From contig JAHDSF010000047.1 of assembly GCA_018432935.1 (NCBI GenBank), positions 4,463 to 68,462 on the forward strand: a stretch of DNA of 64,000 nucleotides. The letters run 5' to 3'. The stretch's first letter is position 1. Each line of letters starts with the position of its first letter. Made by a program: the position numbers and the translations under genes. The DNA is from Rhodospirillales bacterium (GTDB taxonomy: Bacteria > Pseudomonadota > Alphaproteobacteria > Rhodospirillales > Shumkoniaceae). Positions 8,444-22,438 of the stretch are shown here, piece by piece. The notes under the pieces were generated by a model. It saw only the letters and a list, made by a program, of their open reading frames with translations, had not been told where the DNA came from and did no database searches.

Positions 8444-8455
8444 GATTTCACCATC

Positions 8456-8515
8456 TGGGAAACCGCTTTCCCAGAGTTTATAGCACGATTTTTTGCCTGG
8501 GAAAAGGGTTTCCCA
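8456..8515. promoter_or_regulatory. Two 18-bp palindromic LacI-type operators flanking a -10-like TATAAA
   Basis: O1 is TGGGAAACCGCTTTCCCA (8456-8473) and O2 is TGGGAAAAGGGTTTCCCA (8498-8515), with centres 42 bp apart. On the minus strand, TATAAA lies between them, just upstream of the lacI-type gene start at 8443. Confidence 0.5.
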
Positions 8516-8638
8516 CGACCATTTTTGGGATGGCTGTGAAGACCGGCCACCACACCTTCGGGTGCCTATGACCCGACGGCCGGGGCGGTACCGGGGGCTG
8601 TCCGCTGCCGAGCGGCAGCAACAGGTCGCGCGGCCGTC

Positions 8639-10066
8639 TCAGTGCTGGGGCGGCGAGAGGGCGCCCTCCACCCCGGCGGCGAGCGGCGTCGCCAGCGCGG
8701 GGAACGCCTCCCTGCAGACGCCGGCGATCCGGCGCAGCGCGTCGGGCGTCTCGCCCTCCAGGCGCATCGTGATCTTGGGCTCGGTGATCGAGCGGCGGGC
8801 GAGCAGCCAGCCGTCCGGCCACACCAGCCGCACGCCGTCGAGGCGCTCGGGAACGCCGCCGCCCAGCCCATCGGCACAGGTGGCGATGATGCGCTCGATC
8901 TCCGCCGCCGGAAGCGCCAGCCGCAGGTCCTCGGTCATGAACATCGGCGGCAGCGCATCGACCAGTTCGGCCAGGCCCGTATCCTGTCCCGCCAGCCAGG
9001 AGGCCAGCAGGAGCGACGTGTGGAGCGGGTCGTCGCGCGCCTCGATCTCGCCCAGGAATACGTGCCCCGAGAGCTCCACGCCGGCCAGGGCCTGCCGTTC
9101 CAGGACCGTACGCTTCATGAAGGCATGGCCGCTCTTGCAACGCACCGCCTGGCCGCCCAGTGCGGCGATCCGGCGGTCGAGGTGCATCGAGCATTTGATG
9201 TCGAGGATGACGTGCTGGCCGCGGTTCGGCCGCAGCGGGCCCTGGAACAGGACCATCGCCAGCCGTTCGGCCCCGAGAACCCGGCCCCGCCCATCGACCA
9301 CAGCGATGCGGTCGCCGTCGCCGTCGAAGGCGACGCCGAAATCCGCGCGCTCTTCGCGGCAGGCGGCGCGTAGCGCCTCGAGATGGCCGGGCACCGCGCA
9401 GTCGGGATGGCGCTCGCGGAACAGGCCGTCGACGGTGTCGTGGAGGGCGACGACCCGGGCGCCGAGGTGCCGGAACGCCTGCGACGCCACCCCTGACAGA
9501 CAGCCGTTGCCGGGGTCGACGGCGACCGTCAGCCGCTCGATGCCGCGGCCGCGGAAACCGGCCTCGACATCGGCAAGGTAGTCGTCGACGATGCCGTCCC
9601 ACCGGCGCAGCCGTGCCTTGGGAATCGGGCCCCCCGCGGGGAAAGAGGACGCGGCCTCGGCCAGGCCCAGGATGTCGCCCGGGGTCGGCGGAAGGGCCCC
9701 GGCCATCAGCTTGAGGCCGTTCCAGGAGGGCGGGTTGTGGGAGGCGGTGATGATCGCGCTGCCCTGCGCCTTCCGCCGGGCCTTGGCCCAGTAGATCGCG
9801 GGTGTCGGCACCCGCTCGCCGAGATCGATGACCGTCAGGGCATGCCGTTCGAGGCCGGACAGAAAGCTCTTGCGCAGCGCCGGCGTCGATGCCCTGGCGT
9901 CGCCGCCGACCACGACCAGACCCGGCGCCAGGTCGCCTGCCGCGGGTTGCGCCGCCAGCGCCCGCCCGTACGCCCAGCCGACCTTCTCGAACAGGGACTC
10001 GTCGAGCTCGTCCGGGTAAACGCCGCGAATGTCGCAGTCCTTGAAGGCGCGCGTGTCGACCGCCAT
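8639..10066 (-). CDS. Phosphomannomutase/phosphoglucomutase (alpha-D-phosphohexomutase)
   Basis: Uses an internal ATG of ORF 8639..11122 (MAVDTRAFKDCDIRGVY...). Active-site loop TASHNPPSWNG and Mg loop FDGDGDR. The start overlaps the FGGY kinase stop (ATGA at 10063-10066). Confidence 0.9.
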   Translation of the reverse strand: MAVDTRAFKDCDIRGVYPDELDESLFEKVGWAYGRALAAQPAAGDLAPGLVVVGGDARASTPALRKSFLSGLERHALTVIDLGERVPTPAIYWAKARRKAQGSAIITASHNPPSWNGLKLMAGALPPTPGDILGLAEAASSFPAGGPIPKARLRRWDGIVDDYLADVEAGFRGRGIERLTVAVDPGNGCLSGVASQAFRHLGARVVALHDTVDGLFRERHPDCAVPGHLEALRAACREERADFGVAFDGDGDRIAVVDGRGRVLGAERLAMVLFQGPLRPNRGQHVILDIKCSMHLDRRIAALGGQAVRCKSGHAFMKRTVLERQALAGVELSGHVFLGEIEARDDPLHTSLLLASWLAGQDTGLAELVDALPPMFMTEDLRLALPAAEIERIIATCADGLGGGVPERLDGVRLVWPDGWLLARRSITEPKITMRLEGETPDALRRIAGVCREAFPALATPLAAGVEGALSPPQH

Positions 10067-11550
10067 CAGCCATCCCTTCGCGTGGCAACCAGCGCCCTGA
10101 AGGCGCGGTAGTGATCGTCCCAGGCCTGACGGCCGCCGGCTTGCGGCTCGCGCCGCGCGACCTCGCGCACCATGGCCGCGGCGGTATCGCTCCAGGATCC
10201 GGCGAACCAGGCATTCATGGCCGCCACCATGGCCGAGCCGAACGCCGATTCGGGATGGGCGGCGCGGCAGACGGGACGGCCGAGGACGTCGGCGCGGATC
10301 TGCATCCAGACGTCCACCTCGGCGCCCTTGCCGGTGGTCCACACCGTGCCGCCACACGCCGCCCCCAGTTCGGCCGCCACCTCGTAGCCCCAGCGCTCGA
10401 TGCAGGCGAGCCCTTCGAGACAGGATCGGTAGAGCAGGACGGCATCGCCGCCCCTGACTGTCGTGAAGGGCTGGAACGCGCCATCGACGAAGGGGAATCG
10501 CTCTCCCGGCGCCGGCAGCGGATACGTGAAGGTCCCCGACGGCAGGCCGCTGGTGACGCCGGTCTCGAGGGCCGCCAGAACGGCGCCGGCATCGTTCGAG
10601 CCGGCGGCGCACAGCGCGGCGATGCCCGCGCCGCCCGCGTTGCCGGCCCCGCCGGGGAGGAACCCGCCGCCGGGGTGACGGTGGCAGTACATCCGCCCCT
10701 CGCGGTCGCATGCCAGGGCCGAGGCGATCACTTTCCAGACCATGGTGGTGCCCAGGGTCGTGTTCCCGTCCCCGATGGCGCCGGCGCCGGAGGCCGTGCA
10801 CCCGGCGGTGCCGTCGGACATCCCGGCGACGATCCGGCAATCCCGTGGCAGGCCCAGAGCCTCCGCGGCCGCGGCGCCCACGGTTCCGATCGTGGTGCCG
10901 ATCGGCGCCACCCCGGGCAGCCGCGTCGCGTCGATGCCGACGGCTCCCAGGTAGCCTGGCCAGCAGCGGTCCAGAATGTCGTAGCCGGTTTTCAGCGCGT
11001 TGGACTCGTCGCTGACGATCTCGGCGGGCGGCTGACCGGCAAGGCGGGCCGTCACCAGGTCGGATTGATGGGCGAAGCAGACCGCCTTGTCCATCAGCGC
11101 CGCCTCGTGGTTCACCAGCCACAGGATCTTGGCCAGCGCGAACGAGGCGTTGAAGCGGTAGCCGAGCCGGTTGAGAGTCGCCTCCGCGGCAGCATTGAGC
11201 CGCTCAGCCTCCGTCTTGGCGCGGCCGTCGTTGTACATCAGGCCGGGGCGGAGCGGTCGGCCGGCGCGGTCCAGCGGGACGATGGTCCCCGAGGTCGCGT
11301 CCACCGCCAGCGCGGCAATCCCTGCGGGGTCTCTGCCGGCCTGGCGGAGCGCCGACACCGCCTGGCCGATCGCCTTGCAGGCCGCCTGCCACCACAGGTC
11401 CGCATCCTGCTCGCGGCCCTGCCCCGCGGCGACCGGGGCGGGCAACGCTGCGGCGCCCCGCGCCGCCACGTTTCCTTGCGGGTCGACGGCGACAACCTTG
11501 ACGCCCGAGGTGCCGATGTCGACGCCGAGAACGAAGCCTTGCCGGGGCAT
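10066..11550 (-). CDS. FGGY-family carbohydrate kinase
   Basis: 494-aa ORF with N-terminus GVDIGTSGVKVVAVD (actin-like ATPase phosphate-1 motif) and an FGGY N- and C-domain layout. Confidence 0.85.
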   Translation of the reverse strand: MPRQGFVLGVDIGTSGVKVVAVDPQGNVAARGAAALPAPVAAGQGREQDADLWWQAACKAIGQAVSALRQAGRDPAGIAALAVDATSGTIVPLDRAGRPLRPGLMYNDGRAKTEAERLNAAAEATLNRLGYRFNASFALAKILWLVNHEAALMDKAVCFAHQSDLVTARLAGQPPAEIVSDESNALKTGYDILDRCWPGYLGAVGIDATRLPGVAPIGTTIGTVGAAAAEALGLPRDCRIVAGMSDGTAGCTASGAGAIGDGNTTLGTTMVWKVIASALACDREGRMYCHRHPGGGFLPGGAGNAGGAGIAALCAAGSNDAGAVLAALETGVTSGLPSGTFTYPLPAPGERFPFVDGAFQPFTTVRGGDAVLLYRSCLEGLACIERWGYEVAAELGAACGGTVWTTGKGAEVDVWMQIRADVLGRPVCRAAHPESAFGSAMVAAMNAWFAGSWSDTAAAMVREVARREPQAGGRQAWDDHYRAFRALVATRRDG

Positions 11551-11593
11551 AGGGCGTTCCTCCGTGGTTTCCTGCCCGCCGGTCTTGCTCCGG

Positions 11594-12205
11594 CTAGTCG
11601 GCCGCCGCCGCCGCGCCGACGCGGCCGCTCACCATTCGGGCGACTGCCGCCACCTGAGCGGTTTCCTCGATCAACTCCACCACGTGCTGGGCGGCGAGGA
11701 TGGTCTTGCCCACCCCCACCGAGCCGTGGTCTTCAAGAATCATCGCCCGCAGCTTGGGGTCGCGGTAGGCGGCCACGATCGCCTCCGGGTCCTGGTTGCC
11801 GCGACCCGGGCCGCATGGGATCACGGGGATGCGGGCGAGCTTGGCCCGTGCATGGACCGTCATGCACGGGATCTCCTGATTGGTCGAGGCCCACGCGGTC
11901 GCCCACGGGGAGTGCACGTGGACGATGCCGCCGACGTCCTCGCGGACGCGATAGATGCCGAGGTGGAACGGCATGTCCTTGCTGGGCTTGGCGGAGCCTT
12001 CCACGATGGTGCCGTCGAGTGCGACCACCAGCAGGTTGTCCTCGTCGCATTCGAAGAAGCCGACCCCGCTCGGCTTGATCACCACCAGGTTGCGGTCGGT
12101 ACAGCGGATGCTGAGGTTTCCGCCGGTGCCGGTCTGCAGGCCGCGCTCGAAGCACCGCTTGGCCACTGTCATCAGCTCGCGCTTCTTTGCGATCCGATCG
12201 TTCAA
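11594..12205 (-). CDS. Class II aldolase/adducin-family protein
   Basis: C-terminal part of ORF 11594..12742. Motifs GTGGNLS, IVHVHSPWA and LEDHGSVGVG (metal ligands retained). Preferred start is TTG at 12205, with AAGGAG 8 nt upstream, overlapping the upstream TGA (TTGA). An alternative ATG lies at 12172. Confidence 0.8.
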   Translation of the reverse strand: MNDRIAKKRELMTVAKRCFERGLQTGTGGNLSIRCTDRNLVVIKPSGVGFFECDEDNLLVVALDGTIVEGSAKPSKDMPFHLGIYRVREDVGGIVHVHSPWATAWASTNQEIPCMTVHARAKLARIPVIPCGPGRGNQDPEAIVAAYRDPKLRAMILEDHGSVGVGKTILAAQHVVELIEETAQVAAVARMVSGRVGAAAAAD

Positions 12206-13452
12206 GACTTCTTCTCCTTCGCAAGCATCATGTCCTTCAGCAGCGCGCAGCACGCGGCGACGAAAGGACGGTCGTTGACGTTGGCGTCGATTTCGATGAT
12301 CCGCACGTGCGGTCTCGCGGTGGCCTTCAAGGCCTCGGCGAAGGCTGCGTTCGCTTCGGGGTCCCAGATCCTGCCGCCCGGGCAGTCCTGGTCGGAAAAG
12401 CCCAGCCGGGGGATCATCACTGCGGTGGGGCCGGTCGCCAGGTTCAGCTTGCGCGCGAACACGGCGGCGACCTCGCGCATCCCCGCCACATCGACCCGGA
12501 CGTGGGTGAAGAAGGGGCTGTGCCGGTAGTGCAGCCGCTTCACTTCCGCGGCGGGAACGGTCTCGATCGGCCCCCGGCTGATCATGCTGACCCCGCCCGG
12601 CACCACCACCTGCGGCACCCCCAACCGCCCCGCCGTCTCCAGCCTTTCCGGCCCTGGCTTGCCGGTGCCGTCGAAGACGTCGTCGGTGATCTCGTGGGTG
12701 GTCAGGTCGAGCACGCCCGGGAACAGGCCGAGGCCGATCCACTCCTCGAAGGCGCGGCCTCCGGGGCCGGTGGCGTGGAAGCTTGCGACCTCGAAGCCGT
12801 CGGCCTCCAGGATCTCCCGGGCGGCGAGGAGAGCCGGTGTCGTGATGCCGAGGCCGGTGAGCCCGATCACCGGCTTGCCCGTCGGCGGGGGAGCCGGAGC
12901 CGCCGCCATGCCAAGGAGGGCCGCGGCAGCGCCGTTGAGGATGCCGCGCAGGATGGGATTCAAGCCGAGCACGTCGGCCACCGAGGGGATGACCACGATG
13001 TCCCTGGTGCCGAGGTGCGGCCGGATGTCGTAGGGCAGCGTCGAGACCAGGATTTTCGGAAGCCCCAAGGGCAACGCCCGCATCACGGTCGCTGCCACCC
13101 AGGTACCGACGCCGCCGCCGATCGAGATCACGCCCGAGACGCTTCCCTCCGCGAGCCAGGCGGACAGGACCGCGGTCGCGCCCTCGGCCATCGCCCGCAT
13201 GGGGGCGATCTTGTCCTCGGCCCTCGCCAGCAGCTCGCCGACGGTGGTGCCGAGGCGGGCGGCGATCTCCTCGCGGGTGACGTCGGCCGGAATCGTCGGG
13301 GTTCCCTTGACGCCGACGTCGACCACCCTGGCACGGGCGCCAAGGACGGCGAAGCGCTCCCTGAGGAAGGCGATCTCCGGCCCCTTGGTGTCGAGGGTAC
13401 CGATGATGACGGGGTGGCGCGTCACGGTCGCCGGCCCGAAAGAGTCCGCCAT
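12202..13452 (-). CDS. UPF0261 / Tm-1-like ATP-binding domain protein
   Basis: Uses an internal ATG of ORF 12202..13824 (MADSFGPATVTRHPVIIGTLDTKGPEIAFL...). The IGTLDTKG N-terminus and ISIGGGVGT block match my recollection of the UPF0261 (PF06792) family. Confidence 0.8.
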   Translation of the reverse strand: MADSFGPATVTRHPVIIGTLDTKGPEIAFLRERFAVLGARARVVDVGVKGTPTIPADVTREEIAARLGTTVGELLARAEDKIAPMRAMAEGATAVLSAWLAEGSVSGVISIGGGVGTWVAATVMRALPLGLPKILVSTLPYDIRPHLGTRDIVVIPSVADVLGLNPILRGILNGAAAALLGMAAAPAPPPTGKPVIGLTGLGITTPALLAAREILEADGFEVASFHATGPGGRAFEEWIGLGLFPGVLDLTTHEITDDVFDGTGKPGPERLETAGRLGVPQVVVPGGVSMISRGPIETVPAAEVKRLHYRHSPFFTHVRVDVAGMREVAAVFARKLNLATGPTAVMIPRLGFSDQDCPGGRIWDPEANAAFAEALKATARPHVRIIEIDANVNDRPFVAACCALLKDMMLAKEKKS

Positions 13453-13457
13453 CCTGT

Positions 13458-14297
13458 CTACCCCTTCACCGCGCCCGCCGTCAGGCCGGTGATGATCTGC
13501 TTCGAGGCGATGAAGGTGAAGATCAGCGGCGGGATGGCGATCAGGGTGCCGACCGCCATGATCTGGCCCCACTCGATGTTGTGCTCGGTGATGTACAGCG
13601 AGACCATCACCGGCATGGTGCGGGTGAAGCGGTTGGTCAGCACCAGGGCGAGGATGAATTCGTTCCAGGCGATGCGGAAGGTGAAGATGGCGGCCGCCGC
13701 CAGGCCGGGCCGGATCACCGGCAGCACGACCAGGAAGAAGGTCTGCAGCGGATTGGCCCCATCCATGCGCGCCGCCTCCTCGAGCTGGTTCGGCACCTGC
13801 TCGATGAAGCTTTGCAGGATCCACACCACGAACGGCAGGTTCAGTGCGATGTAGACGAGGATGACGCCGGAAAGGGTGTTCGAAAGGTCGAAGTCGTAGG
13901 TCCAGATCATGAAGACCGGGACCACCAGCACCGCCGGCGGCACCATGCGCAGGAGCAACGTGGCCACCGAGACGGTGTCGCGGCCCATGAAGCGGAAGCG
14001 CACCAGGGCGTAGGCGGCCATGCAGCCGACGACCAGGGTGACGGCGGTCGAGATCAAGCCGACCATGAGCGAGTTGGTGAGATAGCGCGCGAGGTGCTCC
14101 TGCTCGAACACGGCGACATAGTTCGACACCGTGGGCATGAACAGGAAATGCGCCTTGTCGTCGAAGATTTGGGTCTTGAGCTGCAGCGACGTCGTCAGCA
14201 TGAGGAGAATCGGCCCCAGGCAGACGAGCGACAGCGCGATCAGGAGCGCGTAATAGCCGATTAGGCCGAGGTCGCTGTTCTTGCGTCTTTTCGCCAC
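13458..14297 (-). CDS. Carbohydrate ABC transporter permease (MalG-like)
   Basis: 279-aa ORF with multiple TM helices and EAA loop QLEEAARMDGAN. Confidence 0.9.
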   Translation of the reverse strand: MAKRRKNSDLGLIGYYALLIALSLVCLGPILLMLTTSLQLKTQIFDDKAHFLFMPTVSNYVAVFEQEHLARYLTNSLMVGLISTAVTLVVGCMAAYALVRFRFMGRDTVSVATLLLRMVPPAVLVVPVFMIWTYDFDLSNTLSGVILVYIALNLPFVVWILQSFIEQVPNQLEEAARMDGANPLQTFFLVVLPVIRPGLAAAAIFTFRIAWNEFILALVLTNRFTRTMPVMVSLYITEHNIEWGQIMAVGTLIAIPPLIFTFIASKQIITGLTAGAVKG

Positions 14298-14307
14298 CGC
14301 CGTCCTC

Positions 14308-15309
14308 CTACATCGCCACTTTGCGCGCCTGCCGCTCGCGCGCCTTGCTGAAGACGAAGAGCGCGACCGACAGCGCGAGCACGATCAGGAGAAGCAGGTT
14401 CGACAGCGCCGACGCGCGTCCCAGCTGCTGGCTGACGAACGCGGTCTTGTAGATGTGCAGGGACAGGATCTCGGTGCTGAGCCCCGGTCCGCCGTCGGTC
14501 ATGATGTAGATGACCTCCAGCACCTTGAAGGCGTCGATCAGGCGCAGCAGCGTGGCGATGATGATGACCGGCATCATCAGCGGCAGCTTGACGTGCCAGA
14601 TCGTCTGCCAGGTGTTCGCCCCGTCGACGCGCGCCGCCTCGATCGCCGAGGCCGGCAGGCTCTGCAGCGCCGCCATGGCGAGGATGAAGATGAACGGCGT
14701 CCACTGCCAGACGTCGGCGATGATGACCGAGGTGAGCGCCATCTCCTGAGACGACAGCCAGGGCACGCCGCCGATGCCGACGGCCTTGGCAATCTTGTTC
14801 AGGATGCCGAACTGCTCGCTGTACATGAACCGCCAGATCAGGCCCACCACCACCGGCGCGACCATCATCGGCAGGATGAATACGGTGCGGAACAGCGACA
14901 TGCCGCGGATCGGCCGTTCCAGGAGCAGGGCGAGCGCCACTCCGAGAAGCACCTCGAGGACCACCACCGTGAAGGCGAAGGTGAGCGTCACCCCGGTGGA
15001 GGTGTAGACGTTGGGATCCCGGAGCAGGGACAGGTAGTTCTCCCACCCCGAGAAGACCGCGGATTCGGGCGCCATGCCCAGCTTCCAGTCCTGGAAGCTG
15101 AGCCAGACCGACCGGCAGACCGGATACAGCAGGCCAACCCCCATGAAGGCGAGGGCCGGCAGCAGGAACAGGTACGGGGTCGAGCGGTTGAGCAGACGCT
15201 TGCCCCGTCGCGCCCGCCGCCCGGTATGCGGGCGGGGACGGGAGGGGGCGTCCCCCAGGGCCGGGCCCTGGGGGACGTGCAGCGTCGTCTGGTCTGCCGT
15301 GGTCGGCAC
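14308..15309 (-). CDS. Carbohydrate ABC transporter permease (MalF-like)
   Basis: C-terminal part of ORF 14308..15459, with EAA loop AIEAARVDGAN. Start taken at GTG 15309, immediately after the SBP stop (15312), with GGAG 9 nt upstream. Confidence 0.85.
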   Translation of the reverse strand: MPTTADQTTLHVPQGPALGDAPSRPRPHTGRRARRGKRLLNRSTPYLFLLPALAFMGVGLLYPVCRSVWLSFQDWKLGMAPESAVFSGWENYLSLLRDPNVYTSTGVTLTFAFTVVVLEVLLGVALALLLERPIRGMSLFRTVFILPMMVAPVVVGLIWRFMYSEQFGILNKIAKAVGIGGVPWLSSQEMALTSVIIADVWQWTPFIFILAMAALQSLPASAIEAARVDGANTWQTIWHVKLPLMMPVIIIATLLRLIDAFKVLEVIYIMTDGGPGLSTEILSLHIYKTAFVSQQLGRASALSNLLLLIVLALSVALFVFSKARERQARKVAM

Positions 15310-15311
15310 GC

Positions 15312-16652
15312 TTACTTGCTCCAGCTGTAGTAGCCGGCCTTGGTCATGATCTCGACCACCCGCGGCTTGATGTCGGCGAACGCCTGCTCGATCGTCTTCT
15401 TGCCGGTCATCGCCTCGGAGAGCGCGACGCCCAGCGTGGGGGCGTTCAGCTCGCCCCACTCCGCGATCAGCGGGCGCCAGTCATAGGCGGCCGCCTTGAA
15501 GGCCTCGGCGAACATCGGATAGTACGGGAACTTCTTCTGCAGCTCGGGGTCGAGATAGGTCGACATCCGGCTCGGCGAGCCGCCGGCAAGCGCGATCTTC
15601 TTGTCGGTCGCCTTGCTGGTCAGCCATTGCAGGAGCAGGAACGCCGCCTCCTTGTTCTTCGAGTTGGCCGGGATGGCGATGCCGAAGCCGCCGGTCTGGG
15701 ACGCCTTGACCTTGCCCTTGGGGTGCGGCGCCCAGCCGATCTTGCCTACAATCTTGGACTTCTCGGGGTTCTCGGCCTCGCCGGCGACCGAGACGGAATC
15801 GAGATACATCGCCGCCTTGCCCTGCAGGAAGGCGTTCTTCATCTCGTCGAAGCCGAACGCGGTGCCGCCTTCCGGCCCGCAGTCGAGGATCTTCTTCAAG
15901 TACTGGGCCGCCTTGATGCCCTCGGGGCTGTCGTAGACCGGCTTCCAGTGATCGTCGAACACGGTGCCACCCAGCGGGTTCAGGTGCAGGAGCCACGCGT
16001 GGCCGACCTGGTGGCCGGCGGCGCCGCGGCTGGTGAGGCCGGACATGCCGGGCTCGAGGTCCTTGAACTTGCAGACGAGGTCCATCATCTCGTCGTAGGT
16101 TTCGGGAACCTTCAGGTTGTGCTTGGCGAAGATGTCCTTGCGGTAGCCGAGCACCGAGGTCTCGGAGCCGAACGGAACGCCGTAGAGCGCGCCGGTGACG
16201 CCGGTGAGATAACCCTTCTTGCCGCCGACGATGCCGACCGGCTCGATGTACGCCTTGAGGATGTCCTCGGGATCGTAGTCGGGGTCGGCGAGCGCCGCGT
16301 TGACGAAGAACGGCGCAAGCGGCGACAGCAGGTTCTTCGCCACGTACTCGGTCTTCCACATGATGACGTAGGAGATGAGGTCGTAGTCGCCCTGCGGCTT
16401 GCTCATCTCCAGCACCTGCTTGTCGTGCATGCGCATGTACTGGAGCTTGTCGACCTCGACCTTGATGCCGGTCTCCTTGGTGAAGTCGGGCAGCACCTTG
16501 GCGACCGCGTCGTAGTGCGGGTGGGCCGGGAAGTTCACGACCAGCGTGGTGCCCTTGTACTTGTCGTAGGGGCTGGCCAGCGCCGTCGTCAGCGCCAGCA
16601 GGCTTACCGCGGCTCCCAGGGCCACGCTCGTCAGCGCCTTTTGGATTCTCAT
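15312..16652 (-). CDS. Sugar ABC transporter substrate-binding protein (family 1)
   Basis: 446-aa ORF with signal peptide MRIQKALTSVALGAAVSLLALTTALA and a solute-binding family 1 fold. Confidence 0.9.
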   Translation of the reverse strand: MRIQKALTSVALGAAVSLLALTTALASPYDKYKGTTLVVNFPAHPHYDAVAKVLPDFTKETGIKVEVDKLQYMRMHDKQVLEMSKPQGDYDLISYVIMWKTEYVAKNLLSPLAPFFVNAALADPDYDPEDILKAYIEPVGIVGGKKGYLTGVTGALYGVPFGSETSVLGYRKDIFAKHNLKVPETYDEMMDLVCKFKDLEPGMSGLTSRGAAGHQVGHAWLLHLNPLGGTVFDDHWKPVYDSPEGIKAAQYLKKILDCGPEGGTAFGFDEMKNAFLQGKAAMYLDSVSVAGEAENPEKSKIVGKIGWAPHPKGKVKASQTGGFGIAIPANSKNKEAAFLLLQWLTSKATDKKIALAGGSPSRMSTYLDPELQKKFPYYPMFAEAFKAAAYDWRPLIAEWGELNAPTLGVALSEAMTGKKTIEQAFADIKPRVVEIMTKAGYYSWSK

Positions 16653-16715
16653 TCGTCTCCTCCTGTCAGTGGTGGAGGTTTCCCGGCAAGGTGCCGGAGC
16701 CTCCGTTTCACGCCG

Positions 16716-17807
16716 TCAAAGAACGCGCTCGGTTGCCGGATCGAACAGGTAGATCGCCTCCGGAGCGACCCGGACCTGCACGGACTCGCCGACCGCGATC
16801 GGCGCGTCCGAGCCGATGTCGATGGTGACCTGCGTGTGCCCGATCTCGGACATCACGATCGAATTGCTGCCGATGTACTCGGAGACCACGACCGGCGCCC
16901 GGATCGCGTTTTCGGCGGACTGGCCGTCGGCGACCACCTGAAAGGCGGTAGGTCGGATGCCGATGGTGATCGGCCGCCCGCGGTGGGCCTTGAGCCTGCC
17001 CGCAGCATCCAGCGGCAGGCCGAGCGAGAAACCGTCGCCCACCACCGCGAGAGGGCCGTCGTTCGAGGCGAGCTCGGCGTCGAAGAAGTTCATCGAGGGA
17101 CTGCCGATGAAGCCAGCGACGAACTTGTTCGCGGGGCGCTTGAACAGCTCTTCGGGCGTCCCCGCCTGCATGATCTTGCCCTTCGACATGACGATGATCC
17201 GGTCGCCCAGGGTCATCGCCTCGATCTGGTCGTGGGTGACGTAGATCATGTTCTTCCTGATGCGCTGCCGCATCAGCGCCAGCTCGGCCCGCATCTGGGT
17301 TCGCAGCTTGGCATCCAGGTTGGACAGCGGCTCGTCGAACAGGAAGGTGGAGGCGTCGCGTACCAGGGCCCGGCCCATCGCCACCCGTTGCCGCTGTCCG
17401 CCCGAAAGCTCGCGCGGCTTCCGTCCCAACAGCTCGCGGATGCCCAGCATGTCGGCGACCTGCTCGATCCGGCGGGCGATCTCGGCCCGGTCGTAATGGG
17501 CGAGGCGGAGCGCGAACGACATGTTGCGCGCCACGTTCATGTGCGGATAGAGCGCGTAGTCCTGGAACACCATCGCGATGTCGCGCTCTTTGGGTTCCAG
17601 GTGGCTGACCGGCTTGCCGTTGATGTAGATCTCGCCGTCCGAGACATCCTCGAGCCCGGCGATCATCCGCAGCGTGGTGGACTTGCCGCACCCCGAGGGG
17701 CCGACCAGGACCGTGAACTCGTTGTCCCGCATGGTCAGGTTCAGCCCCTCGATGACGCTGATCGGCCCGAACCGCTTGGCGACGTTCTCAAGGACGATCT
17801 CGACCAC
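16716..17807 (-). CDS. Sugar ABC transporter ATP-binding protein (MalK/UgpC type)
   Basis: 363-aa ORF with [25 protein letters not shown] and a MalK-type C-terminal domain. Confidence 0.9.
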   Translation of the reverse strand: MVEIVLENVAKRFGPISVIEGLNLTMRDNEFTVLVGPSGCGKSTTLRMIAGLEDVSDGEIYINGKPVSHLEPKERDIAMVFQDYALYPHMNVARNMSFALRLAHYDRAEIARRIEQVADMLGIRELLGRKPRELSGGQRQRVAMGRALVRDASTFLFDEPLSNLDAKLRTQMRAELALMRQRIRKNMIYVTHDQIEAMTLGDRIIVMSKGKIMQAGTPEELFKRPANKFVAGFIGSPSMNFFDAELASNDGPLAVVGDGFSLGLPLDAAGRLKAHRGRPITIGIRPTAFQVVADGQSAENAIRAPVVVSEYIGSNSIVMSEIGHTQVTIDIGSDAPIAVGESVQVRVAPEAIYLFDPATERVL

Positions 17808-17822
17808 CTCTCGCCCCTTTCT

Positions 17823-18467
17823 TCAGCGGGCCTGGCCGTAGGAACCGAAGTGCAGCAGCACATCGTCCATCTGGGTCGGCGACAGCAGGCGCGGCTCGCC
17901 CACCGCCTTCGCCTGCAGGTAGACTCGCGCCATCAGCTCGACGATCTCCGAGACGGTGAAGGCCGACGCCACGTCCTTGCCCACGGTCAACAGGCCGTGG
18001 TTCGCCATCAGCACGGCGTTGTGAGGGCCGATCGCAGCCGCCGTAAGGCGCGCCAGGTCGTCGCTGCCGTAGGTGGCGTAGGGAGCCAGCGGCACCTTGT
18101 GACCGGAAAAGCCGACCAGATAGTGCATGGCTGGGATTTCCCAGCCCAGGCAGGCGACGGTCGTCGAATAAGCGGGGTGGGTGTGCACGACCGCGCCGAT
18201 CTCCGGCTTCACCCGGTAGACGGCGAGGTGCAGCGGCGTCTCGGTCGACGGTTTGCGGCTGCCCTCGACGACCTTGCCATCGAGGTCGACCAGCACGACG
18301 TCCTCGGCCCCGATCCTCGCATAGTCCATCGCGCTGGGGCTGATCGCCACCACGCCGGAGGCGCGGTCGAGAACGCTGATATTGCCGCCGGTCCCCGTGG
18401 TAAGTCCCGCCGGGACCAGCTTCATACCGTACTCGACAACCGCTTCGCGCTCGCTCTTCATCCGCAT
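17823..18467 (-). CDS. Class II aldolase (L-fuculose-phosphate aldolase-like)
   Basis: 214-aa ORF with TGTGGNIS, PSTETPLH, VVHTHPAYS and MANHGLLTVG. All FucA-type metal/acid residues are present. Confidence 0.85.
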   Translation of the reverse strand: MRMKSEREAVVEYGMKLVPAGLTTGTGGNISVLDRASGVVAISPSAMDYARIGAEDVVLVDLDGKVVEGSRKPSTETPLHLAVYRVKPEIGAVVHTHPAYSTTVACLGWEIPAMHYLVGFSGHKVPLAPYATYGSDDLARLTAAAIGPHNAVLMANHGLLTVGKDVASAFTVSEIVELMARVYLQAKAVGEPRLLSPTQMDDVLLHFGSYGQAR

Positions 18468-18515
18468 CGCTTCAATCCTCCGGTTAGGCCGGTCTTGTCC
18501 GGGCCGTTCAATCCT

Positions 18516-19376
18516 TCACCACGCAAACGCCGGAACGGCGAAGTCGGGCGTGACGCCCACACGCCTGCACAGCCGGTCCACCGCAGATTCGTCAAAAGGT
18601 TCCCCGATCTCGCGCGCGTGGATGCCGCCCAGGACCAGCACGCTCTTCAGGCCGGCGCTGCGCGCGCCCGCCACGTCGTGGCGGAGCGAATCGCCGACCA
18701 TCAGCGTGCGGTCCCGCACCGCTCCCAGCTCTTCCAGCGCCGCCTCGAAGATCTCGCGCCCGGGCTTGCCGAACATGCGCACCTCGCAGCCCATCTCGCG
18801 GTAGCGCTCGGCCACTGCGCCCGCGCCGTAGAGCAGCTCGCCGCCGCTCGGCGTTTGCAGGTCCGGGTCGAGGCAGATCATCACCAGCCGGCGTTCCGCC
18901 GCGCGGCGCAGCAGGGCCTCGTAGTCGGAAAACGGGCGGCGCTCGGCCTCGACCCCGGCATTGAGGATGAAGTCGGCCTCTTCGGGGCGGTCGACCCGGA
19001 CCACCGGCAGGCCGTCGAGCACGCCGCCGCCGTCCTGACGCGCCATCAGGAGGCAGCGCCGGCCGAGATCCCCGGACCATGGGAAAGCCCCGTCGGCGTG
19101 GCGGCGCCACGCCACCTCGCCGGACGAGACAATGGCGTCGAAGAGCCCGGCCGCGAACCCGAGATCGCGCAGCCGGGCCTGGTTGGCCTGCGCGCGGCGG
19201 CCGGAGTTGGTGACGACGGCGATCTTCTTGGCCGCGGCGCGCAGCTCGCGGAGCGCCTTCAGCGCCGCCGGGAAGGCCGCACTTCCTTCGTGCAGAACGC
19301 CCCACTGGTCGACCAGGAAAGCGTCGTAGGCCCCGGCGAGGGGACCGATTCCCGGCAGGTATACGGCGCCGCTCAC
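18516..19376 (-). CDS. HAD-superfamily class IIA hydrolase (TIGR01459-like)
   Basis: ORF 18516..19472 with motifs FLVDQWGVLH, VVTNSGR, GKP and VGDSLRHD. Start taken at GTG 19376 (VSGAVYLPG), preceded by GGAGCGGAGG. The ATG at 19472 lies inside a palindromic operator. Confidence 0.75.
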   Translation of the reverse strand: MSGAVYLPGIGPLAGAYDAFLVDQWGVLHEGSAAFPAALKALRELRAAAKKIAVVTNSGRRAQANQARLRDLGFAAGLFDAIVSSGEVAWRRHADGAFPWSGDLGRRCLLMARQDGGGVLDGLPVVRVDRPEEADFILNAGVEAERRPFSDYEALLRRAAERRLVMICLDPDLQTPSGGELLYGAGAVAERYREMGCEVRMFGKPGREIFEAALEELGAVRDRTLMVGDSLRHDVAGARSAGLKSVLVLGGIHAREIGEPFDESAVDRLCRRVGVTPDFAVPAFAW

Positions 19377-19461
19377 GCTTCCTCCGCTCCGAGAGCGGCC
19401 GGCACGGTTTGAACCTTCCGGGCCTGGCCCGCTCGTCGCCTTCGACATACAGAGCATTGTG

Positions 19462-19492
19462 CATGTCGACATGAATGGTCTATTGTGTACAA
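19462..19492. promoter_or_regulatory. Bipartite GntR-type operator/promoter motif (copy 1)
   Basis: CATGTCGACATG (19462-19473, perfect palindrome) and TTGTGTACAA (19483-19492), with centres 20 bp apart. It lies in the 144-bp divergent region between the HAD gene and the aldolase-domain gene. Confidence 0.55.
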
Positions 19493-19520
19493 AAAAACGC
19501 GGCTTGAAAAGGAGCTTGTT

Positions 19521-20573
19521 GTGTCAGGTCATGAAAGGCGCCTCGATCCAGGGTCACCAGAGGTCGCCGCGTTCCTTTCGCTTTCGGCCAGGCTGGGGCG
19601 CAACCCCGCCCTGATCCAGGCGAGCGGCGGCAACACGTCGTGCAAGCTGGACGGCTGCCTGTGGATCAAGGCTTCCGGGAAGCTCCTTGCGGACGCCGAG
19701 ACGGGCGAGGTCTTCGTTCCCCTTCACCTTGACGGGGTGCGGCATGCGATCGTGCGAGACGAGCGGGACCCGGTCTCGGCGCACGTGGAGGCAGGCTGGA
19801 GCCTGCGCCCCTCGATCGAGACGACGCTGCATGCGCTGCTGCCGCACCGCTTCGTCTTCCACGTCCATTCGGTCAACGTGCTGGCCTGGGCGGTGCGGAC
19901 CGACGGCCGGGACAGGATAGCCGAGCGCCTGCAGGGCCTGAAATGGGCCTGGGTGCCCTATGCACGCCCGGGACTGCCCCTCACCCGGGCGGTCGAAAAG
20001 GCAGCCCGCGAAAACCCCGACATCCTCGTGCTCGCCAACCACGGCGTGGTCGTCGGGGGCGAATCGTGCGCCGAGGCCGAACGGCGGCTGGACGAGGTGG
20101 AACGCCGGGTCGCTTCGGCCCCGCGCCCGGTTGCCGACAGGCCCGGGGACGCGCTGCTCCCGCTTGCCGACGGCACCCGGTTCCGGCTGCCGGCCGATCC
20201 GGCCCTGCACTCGCTGGGCCTCGATGCCGCGATGCTCGAGGCTGCCCGGCGGGGCGCCCTTTACCCGGATCACGTCGTATTCCTGGGACCGGTCGCGCCG
20301 GTCGCACCGTCCGCCGACCAGGTCTGGTCCGTGGCCGACAGACATGCCCGCAGCACCGGCGAAGAGCCGCCCTATATGCTGGTCGCCGGGGTCGGTGTGC
20401 TGCTGCGGGCGAAGGCGCCGTTCGGGACGGACGAGATGTTGCGCTGCCAGGTCGACGTCCTGGCGCGTATCCCCCCGGACACATCGCTGCGCTATCTTGG
20501 CGACACCGACGTCGCCGAGCTTGTCGACTGGGACGCCGAGAAGTACCGCAAGGCCCTCAACCAGCAAGCTTGA
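19521..20573 (+). CDS. Class II aldolase/adducin-domain protein with C-terminal extension (resembles the aldolase half of bifunctional rhamnulose-1-phosphate aldolase/dehydrogenases)
   Basis: ORF 19485..20573 with motifs QASGGNTSCK, PSIETTLH, FHVHSVN and LANHGVVVGG. Start taken at GTG 19521, preceded by AAGGAG with a 6-nt spacer. Confidence 0.8.
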   Translation: MSGHERRLDPGSPEVAAFLSLSARLGRNPALIQASGGNTSCKLDGCLWIKASGKLLADAETGEVFVPLHLDGVRHAIVRDERDPVSAHVEAGWSLRPSIETTLHALLPHRFVFHVHSVNVLAWAVRTDGRDRIAERLQGLKWAWVPYARPGLPLTRAVEKAARENPDILVLANHGVVVGGESCAEAERRLDEVERRVASAPRPVADRPGDALLPLADGTRFRLPADPALHSLGLDAAMLEAARRGALYPDHVVFLGPVAPVAPSADQVWSVADRHARSTGEEPPYMLVAGVGVLLRAKAPFGTDEMLRCQVDVLARIPPDTSLRYLGDTDVAELVDWDAEKYRKALNQQA

Positions 20574-20595
20574 GAGAAAGGTCGCGAAAGCCGCC

Positions 20596-21276
20596 ATGCC
20601 AATCAGTGTGCCTGATCAGAGTCAGGTCTCGATCGCCGAGAAGATCGTCGAGGCCTTGACCCGCGACATCAGCGAAGGCGAGCTCATTCCCGGCACCAAG
20701 CTGGAGGAGCAGGCGCTCGCGAAGCGCTTCGGCGTGTCCCGCACGCCGGTGCGCGAGGCGATCCGCATGATGGCCGCCAACGGGTTACTCGACATCCGTG
20801 GCCGGCGCGGCGTCTACGTGACCCAGATCACGACCGAGGAACTCGCCGAGATGTTCGAGGCGATGACCGAGATCGAGGCGCTTTGCGCCATGCTGGCCGC
20901 CCATCGCATGAGCCTGTTCGAGCGCCTGCAGCTCGAGGAGGCGCACCGCCAGTGCGGGCTCGCCGCCGAAGCCAGGGACATCCGGACTTACATCCGCTGC
21001 AACGAGCAGTTCCACGAAATCATCTACCGCGGCACCCATAACCGCTATGTCGCCGATATCGCTCGCGGGTTCCGCTTCCGCACGGCGCCGTTCCGGAACA
21101 CCCGCTTCACCAGCGCGGAAAGCCTCGAGGCTTCCTACGAGGCCCACAAGCAGATCATCGAATCGATCAACAGCACCCAGTCCAAGGATGCGTACGCGAT
21201 CATGCGGTCCCATTCGTCGCGGTCCGGACAGAGCATCCTGAGATCGGGCCTGGCCGAGAGCGGGGCCAAGCCCTGA
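20596..21276 (+). CDS. GntR family transcriptional regulator (FadR/FCD subfamily)
   Basis: Uses an internal ATG of ORF 19960..21276 (MPISVPDQSQVSIAEKIVEAL...). Winged HTH LAKRFGVSRTPVREAIRMMAANGLL plus a helical FCD-like C-terminal domain. Confidence 0.9.
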   Translation: MPISVPDQSQVSIAEKIVEALTRDISEGELIPGTKLEEQALAKRFGVSRTPVREAIRMMAANGLLDIRGRRGVYVTQITTEELAEMFEAMTEIEALCAMLAAHRMSLFERLQLEEAHRQCGLAAEARDIRTYIRCNEQFHEIIYRGTHNRYVADIARGFRFRTAPFRNTRFTSAESLEASYEAHKQIIESINSTQSKDAYAIMRSHSSRSGQSILRSGLAESGAKP

Positions 21277-21295
21277 CCGGGCCTTCGAAGCCGTC

Positions 21296-21325
21296 TTGTC
21301 GACAAAAGCCGTCTCTAGTATACAA
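21296..21325. promoter_or_regulatory. Bipartite GntR-type operator/promoter motif (copy 2)
   Basis: TTGTCGACAA (21296-21305, perfect palindrome) and TAGTATACAA (21316-21325), with centres 20 bp apart. It lies 64-93 bp upstream of the MBL-fold gene. Core and spacing are the same as copy 1. Confidence 0.55.
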
Positions 21326-21388
21326 TAATTGCAGTCACGGTCCCCGCCGTTTTCGCCGCGCGCGACGTCGGGCTCAGAGGAGGAACGC

Positions 21389-22219
21389 ATGTCCGTCGAA
21401 AAGACCCGGATCTATCCCATCAATACCGGCTGGCTGGAAGGCGATCTCGGCACGTACATCTTCTGGAAGGGCAAGGCCGGAGAGAAGATCTGGAACCCGA
21501 CGCTGTGCTTCTACGTCGACACCGGCGAGCACAAGATCATGGTCGACACCGGCCTGTCGGACGAGGCGCGAGCCACCAAGTACCACCACAAGTGCCAGAA
21601 GCGCGGCTGCGTGGAGAGCCCCGAGGCGCTGCGGCGCCTGGGCGTCGACCCGGCGGAGATCGACATCGTGCTGTTCACGCACCTGCACTGGGACCACGTG
21701 CAGTGCATGAAGGAATTCAAGAACGCCCGCTACATCTGCACGCAGACCGAGCTGATGTGGGCGCACAATCCGCTGCCGCTCTATTACCGCTCCTACGAGT
21801 CGCCTGTCCTCGGCATCGAGGCGCCGTTCATCGGCTGCCATTTCGAACTGGTCGAAGGCGACACCGAGATCGTTCCCGGCGTCAGCGTCTTTCCGACCCC
21901 CGGCCATTGCCCGGGCCACCAGGCGGTGACGGTGAAGACCGTGGCCGGCGACATCGTGATCGCCGGCGACGCCATCTTCCAGTGGCGCAACATGGAACCC
22001 AACATGGAAGAGAAGTGGCGCTACTGGGTTCCCGCCCGCTTCGTCAGCTCGATCGACGGCTGGCGAAGCGTCGAGGAGATGGACAAGCGGGCGGACTTCA
22101 TCCTGCCCACTCACGAAGAGGGCGTGCTGGCCCACCCCGTCTATCCGTACGAGGGCATGCCGCTGCGCGAGCGCCGGAAGCCGATCCGCGGCGCCTCCTT
22201 CTTCTTCGGCGGGAACTGA
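21389..22219 (+). CDS. MBL-fold metallo-hydrolase (N-acyl-homoserine-lactonase-like / lactonase-like)
   Basis: ORF 21329..22219. Start taken at MSVEKTRIYPIN, preceded by GAGGAGGAA. The HxHxDH motif is present as LFTHLHWDHV, with a later GHCPGH. Confidence 0.85.
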   Translation: MSVEKTRIYPINTGWLEGDLGTYIFWKGKAGEKIWNPTLCFYVDTGEHKIMVDTGLSDEARATKYHHKCQKRGCVESPEALRRLGVDPAEIDIVLFTHLHWDHVQCMKEFKNARYICTQTELMWAHNPLPLYYRSYESPVLGIEAPFIGCHFELVEGDTEIVPGVSVFPTPGHCPGHQAVTVKTVAGDIVIAGDAIFQWRNMEPNMEEKWRYWVPARFVSSIDGWRSVEEMDKRADFILPTHEEGVLAHPVYPYEGMPLRERRKPIRGASFFFGGN

Positions 22220-22266
22220 CAGCACCGCCATACTCCGGACCCGCGACGAGAGTTGACCAGGAGCAG

Positions 22267-22283
22267 CTCGGCACGACGCCGAG
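22267..22283 (+). terminator. Possible intrinsic terminator after the MBL-fold gene
   Basis: CTCGGC-acgac-GCCGAG (6-bp stem) followed by the T-rich stretch tctgcttctgg. Confidence 0.35.
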
Positions 22284-22438
22284 TCTGCTTCTGGCGCCGC
22301 CCTGCCGATGGATCGGGGCGGGACGCCTCTGCTCCGTCACCGACGTCAGGTGTCCGCCAGCCCGGCCATGCGAGACTGTAGCCCGGCGCCCTCCTGATGG
22401 GCCTCAGCAGACGGGCGAATCGTCCCCACATTGGAGCA

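Follow-up and report, generated by a model that had tools for sequence, protein, structure and literature searches.

A 64,000-nucleotide stretch of contig JAHDSF010000047.1 from a Rhodospirillales bacterium, called the window here, carries 13 genes at positions 8639-22219, ten on the minus strand facing three on the plus strand. The locus probably encodes a new bacterial route for L-ascorbate that is built from known enzyme superfamilies and includes several new enzyme specificities. The gene set was taken from mechanical open reading frame (ORF) calls and inspection of start codons, and the same genes appear in independent calls on the identical public contig. Domains were assigned with Pfam at its gathering scores, and family-level assignments were made with NCBIfam equivalog models and their cut-offs. 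The genes are listed below, the minus-strand set in operon order and the plus-strand set from left to right.

18516-19376, minus strand: HAD-IIA hydrolase (TIGR01459 family) that opens the operon; alternative start at 19472; matches to Pfam Hydrolase_6 and Hydrolase_like
17823-18467, minus strand: Ald1, FucA/DrdA-like class II aldolase; PF00596, 184 bits
16716-17807, minus strand: ATP-binding cassette (ABC) transporter ATPase of the MalK/UgpC type; Walker A GPSGCGKST and signature LSGGQRQR read in the translation
15312-16652, minus strand: periplasmic solute-binding protein (SBP) of the CUT1 class; SBP_bac_1, 141.7 bits
14308-15309, minus strand: ABC permease 1; Pfam BPD_transp_1 on the identical public contig
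13458-14297, minus strand: ABC permease 2; Pfam BPD_transp_1 on the identical public contig
12202-13452, minus strand: UPF0261 (Tm-1-like) ATP-binding protein; PF06792, 163.9 bits, and PF23189, 222.3 bits
11594-12205, minus strand: Ald2, short protein of the class II aldolase fold, motif KPSKD; PF00596, 150 bits
10066-11550, minus strand: FGGY-family sugar kinase; matches to FGGY_N and FGGY_C
8639-10066, minus strand: alpha-D-phosphohexomutase (PMM/PGM family) with PGM_PMM domains, translationally coupled to the FGGY gene
19521-20573, plus strand: Ald3, stand-alone RhaE-type class II aldolase domain of 350 aa; alternative start at 19485; PF00596, 81 bits
20596-21276, plus strand: GntR/FCD transcriptional regulator; PF00392, 72.6 bits, and PF07729, 79.1 bits
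21389-22219, plus strand: metallo-beta-lactamase (MBL)-fold hydrolase of the AiiA/4-pyridoxolactonase type; Lactamase_B, 84 bits

From the HAD-IIA gene to the phosphohexomutase gene, the gaps on the minus strand are 48, 15, 63, 2, 10, 5, -4, 43 and -1 nt. The UPF0261 and Ald2 genes share a TTGA overlap (-4 nt), and the FGGY and phosphohexomutase genes share a TGATG overlap (-1 nt). A first-pass annotation of this DNA had described a ten-gene operon with gaps of -4 to 63 nt, which both the ORF calls and the independent gene calls bear out, and its domain identities stand, with each Pfam call above the gathering score. It had also remarked that the set has no isomerase or dehydrogenase, and none is found within 8639-22219. 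Equivalog models for XylB, FucA, AraD, OtnC, ribulose-1-phosphate (Ru1P) aldolase, RhaEW, GlmM/ManB and 4-pyridoxolactonase all score under their cut-offs. The sole NCBIfam models passed are TIGR01459 for the HAD protein and a UPF0261 subfamily model, neither of which is informative on function. With these equivalogs below cut-off and the defining partner enzymes absent, the locus indeed fits none of the fucose/rhamnose, tetronate, erythritol or dihydroxyacetone phosphate (DHAP) shunt schemes, as had been stated.

Relatives of the locus were gathered by scans of genome and metagenome contigs, by protein searches with the UPF0261 and MBL sequences and by contig look-ups. A comparison of neighbourhoods finds the gene set in the same order in about 15 loci (numbered here with an L) from four or more phyla. 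The core comprises the ABC transporter, UPF0261, MBL, Ald2, the FGGY kinase, the mutase, an Ald3-type (RhaE-type) aldolase and GntR. It is hosted by Rhodospirillales and other Alphaproteobacteria (type A, which includes the window), Betaproteobacteria (type B), Desulfobacterota-like metagenome-assembled genomes (MAGs; type C) and a Nitrospinaceae MAG, and GntR orthologues occur in related loci of types A, B and C. The ABC ATPase is 50-75% identical across related loci, its orthologues carrying Pfam ABC_tran and OB_MalK, and the FGGY and mutase genes are always adjacent. Ald3-type genes encode proteins of 343-350 aa, of 253 or 436 aa, or fusions to a short-chain dehydrogenase/reductase (SDR) as in RhaEW. 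HAD-IIA is present only in the window, L002, L003 and L004. MBL, Ald3 and GntR belong to the core, but HAD-IIA and the FucA-like Ald1 are add-ons confined to the window's own lineage. In L002 the Ald1 slot is filled by a Hyi/OtnI-like TIM barrel.

UPF0261, MBL and Ald2 form an invariant enzyme triad. Among full-length related loci, Ald2 lies next to UPF0261 and/or MBL with two exceptions: L005, a Desulfobacterales chromosomal locus in which only the transporter and UPF0261 remain, and L080, an Anaerolineae locus with MBL, two UPF0261 genes, a RuBisCO-like protein (RLP) and no Ald2. A smaller unit of UPF0261, Ald2 (always with KPSKD) and an MBL that is 71-72% identical stands alone in marine Gammaproteobacteria and Rhodobacteraceae. 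Conservation of the MBL protein is unusually strong. It is 92-93% identical between the window and L002 (747-1652) or L003 (1067-1987), where other cluster proteins show 46-89% identity; L033 stands at 76% and distant phyla at 71-72%, most of these loci having UPF0261 next to MBL. In a nucleotide search against plasmids no annotated copy of the whole locus was found, and only the transporter genes matched. UPF0261 homologues from Thermomicrobium and haloarchaea were set aside as context, being paired with a phosphoenolpyruvate (PEP)-hydrolase-like TIM barrel in a different subfamily context.

Other genes accompany some of these loci. The anaerobe-type loci (L009 1726-5768, L011 1-5667 and L080 9265-16287) add an LsrF-like thiolase (346 bits versus a cut-off of 297), triosephosphate isomerase (TIM) and RpiB, as well as MtnW-like or OiaX-like RLPs. 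L011 has a second UPF0261-MBL pair, and in L080 genes of the URO-D family are interleaved with the two UPF0261 genes. In two type-A loci, L004 (4611-5240) and L008 (4770-5399), a LuxR/GerE-type response regulator gene, absent from the window, separates the first enzymes from the transporter ATPase gene. RpiA stands by type-B loci (L010 17483-18154; L012 17510-19481). This placement may be housekeeping synteny, because proA, nadD and rsfS follow. The supposed aldehyde dehydrogenase beside RpiA in these loci is housekeeping ProA rather than a pathway enzyme, which weakens the RpiA link.

The window locus has its own regulatory signature. A two-part palindromic motif, TGTCGACA-N11-TTGTGTACAA, is located at 19464-19492, where the promoters of the HAD operon and Ald3 diverge, and a second copy, TGTCGACA-N11-TAGTATACAA, lies at 21297-21326 upstream of MBL. 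As TGTCGACA-N11-TWGTRTACAA, the motif has exactly two copies in the 64-kb window with identical spacing (a 19-nt offset at both). Each half-site is found only twice in the 64 kb, against a chance expectation of 0.00 for the second half. Within 8300-22700 a single sigma-70-like promoter was found (TCGACA-16-TACAAT, 21299-21326, 10/12 positions), and its -35 and -10 boxes are overlapped by the second copy. The motif is kept at equivalent places in L002, L003 and L008, and type-B loci have a different palindrome that is common to their two promoter regions. These motifs, which have the typical GT-N-AC form, are predicted GntR operators, the first of which would overlap promoter elements. Because the two-part motif occurs only at both plus-strand promoter regions, co-regulation of the 13 genes as one regulon is likely. 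From the motif we infer that control is exerted by the GntR/FCD protein itself, which would act as a repressor. FCD-type members of the GntR family generally respond to carboxylates, which agrees with the ascorbate reading given below.

The transporter gives the best indication of substrate. SBP orthologues with E <= 1e-80 occur in five plasmid records, of which four were read (Tateyamaria, Ensifer, Variovorax PBL-E5 and Thalassococcus) and a second Variovorax record was left out. The plasmid orthologues are 53-59% identical to the window SBP, with 58% for the Variovorax cluster. Cytochrome b561 is encoded beside the transporter genes in all four records read, and an SMP-30/gluconolactonase gene lies in the same operon or within about 7 kb. 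Stack et al. 2020 reportedly described an ascorbate pathway in Cupriavidus necator that involves cytochrome b561, a gluconolactonase and a benzilic rearrangement, and in which the b561 and SMP-30 families are said to run the first two steps, from ascorbate to dehydroascorbate to 2,3-diketogulonate. The Variovorax locus adds YncE (beta-propeller), PdxA-family, enolase-superfamily dehydratase and DHDPS-family proteins, and together these would match the genes reported by Stack et al. 2020. L-idonate 5-dehydrogenase is encoded in the Ensifer and Thalassococcus loci, Ensifer also has a gluconokinase, and gndA is near the Ensifer and Tateyamaria loci. The idonate-type sets of these three suggest yet another downstream route. 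This L-idonate/gluconate-type variant also looks undescribed.

Loci that carry the core or triad itself point in the same direction. In four betaproteobacterial-type loci the transporter and UPF0261 are separated by b561 (34-48% identity) and SMP-30 (42-53% identity). The metagenomic locus L033 has an SBP (67% identical), MBL, UPF0261 (44%), an Ald2-like gene and an FGGY kinase beside ulaGDEF, whose products exceed the respective NCBIfam cut-offs (UlaG 641 versus 306, UlaD 314 versus 294, UlaE 426 versus 200 and UlaF 376 versus 257). One SBP/transporter family, found in L071, L072, L073, L077, L033 and the window, fronts four different downstream gene sets: Stack-type (Variovorax), L-idonate/gluconate-type (Ensifer, Thalassococcus, Tateyamaria), ula-type (L033) and UPF0261-type. 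Because b561 and SMP-30 accompany both the plasmid transporters and the type-B loci, and ula genes are present in L033, the substrate is rather likely to be L-ascorbate or a direct derivative. The SBP is a predicted receptor for L-ascorbate or for dehydroascorbate/2,3-diketogulonate. It had been concluded from the gene set that no pathway could be assigned, which was too pessimistic, since genome context gives a substrate family of L-ascorbate or its oxidised or hydrolysed derivative. A core without a dehydrogenase is understandable because ascorbate is already at the 3-keto oxidation level.

The UPF0261 protein is a predicted ATP-dependent kinase, placed at or near pathway entry because L005 keeps only this enzyme beside the transporter. 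Its two Pfam scores compare with a cut-off of 27 each, and it reaches 412 bits on NF002674 (cut-off 335). Kinase function had been no more than a putative assignment, for which there is now experimental precedent: the multiple aromatic kinase MarK of Novosphingobium aromaticivorans, the only characterised UPF0261 member, phosphorylates phenolic hydroxyls while converting ATP to ADP (PMC12624787). The one catalytic activity reported for the family came from an evolved mutant. The window protein is 34% identical to MarK (PDB 9MPY). The D-T-K motif of the ATP site (K23), His226 and His311 are conserved, and K23 (MarK K16, Tm-1 K20) and His226 (MarK His219, which hydrogen-bonds the acceptor oxygen) do not vary among 25 orthologues. 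In acidity, the enediol hydroxyls of ascorbate come close to phenols.

This kinship could also mean that the locus serves aromatic catabolism in the manner of MarK, with phosphorylation of a phenol, decarboxylation by an aldolase-fold aromatic-acid decarboxylase such as PhtC or HMPDdc, and a 4-pyridoxolactonase-like MBL. Class II aldolase-fold aromatic decarboxylases do exist, and 4-pyridoxolactonase (3AJ3) is the best PDB match of the MBL protein, followed by acyl-homoserine lactone (AHL) lactonases. However, the residues with which MarK contacts its aromatic substrate, Thr196, Phe283, Ile285 and His348, are replaced by Ile203, Met290, Ser292 and Gln355; MarK His304 is kept, but it is conserved family-wide. 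Neither the window locus nor related loci contain MarK-type neighbours (biotin carboxylase AcvCDE/HpeCBA, phosphatase or CoA ligase), oxygenase genes are likewise missing, and aromatic-pathway models all fall far under their cut-offs. The sugar-type ABC transporter, FGGY kinase and phosphohexomutase of the locus also speak against such a pathway. MarK-like aromatic catabolism is extremely improbable and was rejected on pocket residues and genomic context. The MBL protein, closest to the gamma-lactonases AiiA and 4-pyridoxolactonase, is predicted to act as a gamma-lactonase.

Alignment with E. coli FucA, SgbE and OtnC agrees with the earlier statement that the metal ligands are intact in all three aldolase-fold proteins (Ald1 PSTE, HTH, NHG; Ald2 PSKD, HVH, DHG; Ald3 PSIE, HVH, NHG). 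The accompanying label of three class II aldolase paralogues needs amendment. There are three intact aldolase-fold active sites, but Ald2 resembles a decarboxylase rather than a third aldolase. It shares the PSK lysine with OtnC (KPSKE) and has neither the AraD insertion nor the C-terminal YYGQ tail. Ald2 is predicted to be an OtnC-like decarboxylase of a beta-keto-acid phosphate. An AraD-type 4-epimerase converting L-xylulose-5-phosphate to D-ribulose-5-phosphate, which would explain the Rpi genes, was down-weighted because the insertion and the catalytic C-terminal tail are missing.

The likeness of Ald2 to OtnC raises the question of a C4 acid-sugar pathway for L-threonate or D-erythronate. 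Such a pathway would resemble Otn, with UPF0261 in place of the DUF1537 kinase OtnK and Ald2 as OtnC, and would feed on breakdown products of ascorbate. Besides the KPSK(D/E) motif, an OtnI/Hyi-like isomerase in L002 and L008 (307 and 319.5 bits versus a cut-off of 325) speaks for it. On the OtnC model Ald2 scores 104 bits and Ald1 110 bits, and membership fails at the cut-off of 250; no tetronate dehydrogenase (LtnD or DenD) is found in any locus, and the window has no DUF1537 protein, OtnI or dehydrogenase. Remote homology between UPF0261 and the DUF1537 acid-sugar kinases was considered and discarded, as it is undetectable (hhalign probability 0.1). The mutase, FGGY kinase and RhaE-type aldolase would also be left without a role, and a C4 acid-sugar pathway is very unlikely.

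Ald3 scores best on NCBIfam models for the bifunctional aldolase/SDR proteins (RhaEW), at 89 bits versus cut-offs of 567-1240, and it has no SDR domain. Its subfamily motif PS[IV]E..LHA.LPHR recurs in the fused 702-aa form of L009, so that Ald3, although no RhaEW equivalog, could plausibly function in the manner of RhaE. Ald3 is predicted to be an L-threo ketose-1-phosphate aldolase that gives DHAP and an aldehyde. L-xylulose-1-phosphate has the same 3R,4S (L-threo) configuration as L-rhamnulose-1-phosphate, and rhamnulose-1-phosphate aldolase cleaves it to DHAP and glycolaldehyde. The release of an aldehyde fits because counterparts in type-C loci are fused to an SDR or encoded next to an aldehyde:ferredoxin oxidoreductase (AFOR). 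In the window, an aldehyde dehydrogenase (504 aa, SSADH-like, 236 bits) is encoded at 23250-24764, on the strand opposite to MBL and 1 kb past it. This gene has no operator motif and is a possible sink for the predicted glycolaldehyde and no more.

The remaining enzymes are the source of another competing explanation. The best equivalog for the FGGY protein is XylB (163 bits versus a cut-off of 380), its best PDB matches are SePSK and AtXK-1, and it is 23% identical to E. coli LyxK. The phosphohexomutase belongs to its superfamily, with PGM_PMM domains I-III above cut-off, domain IV at 20.3 bits versus 23.1 and no specific equivalog; the motifs TASHNP, DGDGDR, ELSGH and RRSITEP in its translation are fully canonical for aldose phosphates. 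In type C the mutase gene overlaps the next gene, which encodes a short RhaE-type aldolase, and this suggests an order of kinase, mutase, aldolase. Ald1 is 34% identical to E. coli FucA and scores 262.4 bits on PRK06833 (cut-off 264) and 198 on the Ru1P aldolase model (cut-off 300). It appears to be a FucA/DrdA-like enzyme of the type that acts on D-erythro ketose-1-phosphates.

These properties could be combined into a pathway for a pentulose, pentose or polyol (L-xylulose, D-ribulose or a pentitol) that uses the FGGY kinase, the mutase, ribose-5-phosphate isomerase and two stereo-complementary DHAP aldolases, with MBL and UPF0261 in a side role. The nearest structures of the FGGY protein are D-ribulokinase-like, and the nearest solved relatives of the SBP are the polyol binders 5IAI and 4RYA. 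RpiA or RpiB stands beside many loci, the aldose-phosphate motifs of the mutase fit, and Ald1 resembles D-ribulose-1-phosphate and 5-deoxyribulose-1-phosphate aldolases. However, the core has no polyol dehydrogenase or aldose isomerase, and UPF0261, MBL and Ald2 are its most conserved part, with the triad occurring without FGGY or mutase. RpiA in type B, next to housekeeping proA and nadD, may be mere synteny, and such a pathway would offer no explanation for the linkage to b561, SMP-30 and ula genes. A pentulose or polyol pathway is thus distinctly unlikely.

The HAD-IIA protein had been called phosphatase-like. Its family is secure, with 205.5 bits on TIGR01459 (cut-off 103.75) and motifs II-IV present, but a plain phosphatase is uncertain: motif I reads D-Q-W-G-V instead of D-x-D-G, and the Asp+2 general acid is missing in the window, L002 (3656-4552) and L003 (4057-4941). 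Its substrates may be ones that have good leaving groups, for example enol or acyl phosphates, or the protein may be something other than a simple phosphatase.

With moderate confidence, the locus can be read as a GntR-controlled system for uptake and breakdown of L-ascorbate, dehydroascorbate or 2,3-diketo-L-gulonate that ends in cleavage by a DHAP aldolase. All enzyme roles in this scheme are deduced from sequence and context. The ABC system would import the lactone, and UPF0261 would phosphorylate it with ATP. The favoured acceptor, by analogy to MarK, would be the acidic enediol hydroxyl O2, yielding ascorbate 2-phosphate, with the 6-OH as alternative; confidence in this specific enol-phosphate mechanism is low. 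MBL would then open the gamma-lactone to a phosphorylated 3-keto-L-gulonate (the 2-phospho form in the favoured sequence). Removal of CO2 from this beta-keto acid by Ald2 would give L-xylulose-1-phosphate if O2 was phosphorylated, or L-xylulose-5-phosphate if O6 was. Ald3 would split L-xylulose-1-phosphate into DHAP and glycolaldehyde. The aldehyde would be oxidised elsewhere, in other lineages presumably by the fused SDR or adjacent AFOR.

The other enzymes are harder to place. FGGY and phosphohexomutase most likely recapture free L-xylulose or 3-keto-gulonate and/or shift phosphate between C5 and C1, and this is the weakest part of the model. The main alternative within the scheme is a Ula-like variant with O6 phosphorylation and L-xylulose-5-phosphate, in which the mutase could serve to transfer the phosphate from C5 to C1. 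HAD-IIA and Ald1, as lineage extras, could recondense DHAP and glycolaldehyde to D-ribulose-1-phosphate and then dephosphorylate it.

Several observations weigh against ascorbate breakdown by this scheme. At 53-59% identity, a switch of ligand in the SBP is possible. The presence of b561 and SMP-30 alongside the core in type B suggests that the core may take 2,3-diketogulonate rather than ascorbate, and anaerobe-type loci are without b561. Since only type B pairs b561 and SMP-30 with the core, the entry compound is ambiguous and could be ascorbate, dehydroascorbate or diketogulonate. Some copies of the core or triad lack a transporter, as in the Nitrospinaceae MAG (13 kb retrieved), and L033 carries both ula genes and the triad, an unexplained redundancy. 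Among the enzymes, MBL reaches only 78 bits versus characterised lactonases, and Ald2 is equally distant from OtnC (32% identity) and the epimerase SgbE (34%). FGGY and phosphohexomutase are conserved yet not needed by the simplest scheme, and we know of no precedent for a pentulose 5-to-1 mutase. Finally, the window contains no aldehyde-oxidising gene that bears the operator.

In a more general form, the triad might be a so far undescribed module that turns enediol gamma-lactones into ketose-1-phosphates by phosphorylation of the enol oxygen, opening of the lactone and decarboxylation of the 2-phospho-3-keto acid, a generalization that is tentative and rather doubtful. It is also conceivable, although rather unlikely, that the same enzymes serve a different enediol-lactone or sugar-acid substrate, with the triad converting a generic aci-reductone lactone into a ketose phosphate. 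Candidates are D-erythorbate, D-erythroascorbate, a C4 hydroxytetronate/3-oxo-tetronate lactone, 2-keto-L-gulonate and L-gulono- or L-galactono-1,4-lactone. A C4 substrate would lead to DHAP directly, and a C5 substrate to a tetrulose phosphate and, via TIM and RpiB, to erythrose-4-phosphate. Occurrence of the triad alone in marine Gammaproteobacteria and Rhodobacteraceae, without aldolase or transporter, would fit if the product already belonged to central metabolism. Recurrent accessory genes are RpiB, TIM, Hyi/OtnI-like and RLP genes, and the OtnC motif in Ald2 is also compatible with such a substrate. In contrast, the 71-76% identity of MBL in all contexts argues for a single substrate, and the transporter is associated with ulaGDEF and with cytochrome b561, which is a family of ascorbate-specific oxidases. 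L-gulono- or L-galactonolactone would need a dehydrogenase, which is not present.

If ascorbate breakdown by the proposed scheme is correct, the locus would represent a fourth, widely distributed bacterial route for vitamin C. It would also provide the first physiological role for UPF0261, a family that is widespread in bacteria, archaea and, as Tm-1, plants. A new class II aldolase-fold decarboxylase would be added, and possibly a phosphohexomutase able to transfer phosphate between the C5 and C1 positions of a pentulose. Activities new to the class II aldolase, FGGY and phosphohexomutase superfamilies would probably come to light. Ascorbate is abundant around plants, algae and animals, and to our knowledge only a few bacterial routes for it have been described. 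The gene set is seen in soil, wastewater, sediment and marine metagenomes and in at least four phyla, and a new route would change the annotation of vitamin C turnover in many genomes. Because four different downstream sets adjoin the same transporter family, this family should be a useful marker for further ascorbate pathways. Literature searches on UPF0261, on the enzyme-family combinations and on ascorbate catabolism found no published description of the gene set, in keeping with its earlier nomination as a candidate for an undescribed system.

The surroundings of the locus deserve brief mention. Directly downstream, at 2334-8443, is a separate sugar locus with a LacI regulator (7433-8443), an SBP (6121-7401), two permeases and a GH127-family (beta-L-arabinofuranosidase-like) enzyme at 2334-4265. 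Farther away, 36000-38000 and 54000-61500 have 73-75% G+C, and very long minus-strand ORFs (about 1100-1290 aa) are found at 54616-61426.

Comparison with characterised systems shows where the predicted route would borrow and where it would depart. The UPF0261 protein and MarK belong to the same two-domain family, keep the Asp-Thr-Lys of the ATP site and the acceptor-oxygen His, and are predicted to share the phosphorylation of an acidic hydroxyl. They differ in the aromatic-pocket residues and in context, which is of carbohydrate type in the window versus the acetovanillone carboxylase, phosphatase and CoA ligase of MarK.

Among aldolase pathways, RhaEW is a proven bifunctional enzyme that works as an aldolase on L-rhamnulose-1-phosphate and as an L-lactaldehyde dehydrogenase (PMC3870299). 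Ald3 falls in the RhaE aldolase subfamily, and type-C loci keep the SDR fusion, as in RhaEW and the L-lyxose/L-xylulose branch of the rhamnose pathway. Unlike RhaEW, the window Ald3 lacks a dehydrogenase domain and scores far below the equivalog cut-offs, and rhamnose isomerase and rhamnulokinase are absent. For the DHAP shunt of 5-deoxyribose salvage (DrdK, DrdI, DrdA), Ald1 comes just under the PRK06833 cut-off, and there is no MtnA/e2b2- or MtnK-family gene. The haloarchaeal non-carboxylating pentose bisphosphate pathway is not matched either: besides the Ru1P aldolase score, the phosphatase model gives 42 versus 330, and no isomerase is present. These two schemes, together with the erythritol and apiose schemes, were rejected because their defining partner enzymes are absent here.

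The Otn (3-oxo-tetronate) and Oia (3-oxo-isoapionate) pathways are alike in that a 3-keto acid sugar is phosphorylated and then decarboxylated to a ketose phosphate. Ald2 has the KPSK motif and short architecture of OtnC, and an RLP resembling a decarboxylase, TIM and RpiB accompany some loci. The predicted route would differ in its UPF0261 kinase (versus DUF1537), in needing no dehydrogenase or oxidoisomerase, in a substrate that is probably C6 and in the addition of a lactonase, FGGY kinase, mutase and aldolase.

We know of three bacterial ascorbate routes, the Ula phosphotransferase system (PTS), YiaK-S and cytochrome-b561/benzilic-rearrangement routes, and the proposed one differs from all of them. 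With the b561 pathway reportedly described by Stack et al. 2020, the locus shares an orthologous transporter family and, by prediction, the substrate family, and type-B loci carry b561 and SMP-30. By tblastn the window contains no b561 or SMP-30, and it also lacks the beta-propeller, amidohydrolase, PdxA-family and L-lyxonate-pathway genes. In place of an oxidation step, its route would use two kinases, a mutase and aldolase-fold enzymes.

The closest parallel is the Ula pathway of E. coli, which consists of the UlaABC PTS, UlaG lactonase, UlaD decarboxylase and UlaE/UlaF epimerases. No match to the UlaG, UlaD, UlaE, UlaF or UlaABC PTS equivalogs exists among the scanned window proteins, and tblastn of the whole window with L033 UlaG and E. 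coli SgbH, SgbU, SgbE and LyxK gives only weak matches to the aldolase-fold and FGGY genes. The predicted route would nevertheless follow the Ula route in being redox-neutral and in passing through a phosphorylated lactone, which an MBL-fold enzyme opens, to a 3-keto acid whose decarboxylation gives an L-xylulose phosphate. Each includes a class II aldolase-fold protein, and the two gene sets are physically joined in L033. Unlike the Ula system, the window has an ABC transporter and soluble kinases instead of a PTS, an MBL of the AiiA rather than the UlaG type and, in place of UlaD with its orotidine-monophosphate decarboxylase (OMPDC) fold, a candidate decarboxylase with an aldolase fold. UlaE is absent as well, and the predicted end point is DHAP and a C2 aldehyde, whereas the Ula pathway ends at D-xylulose-5-phosphate.

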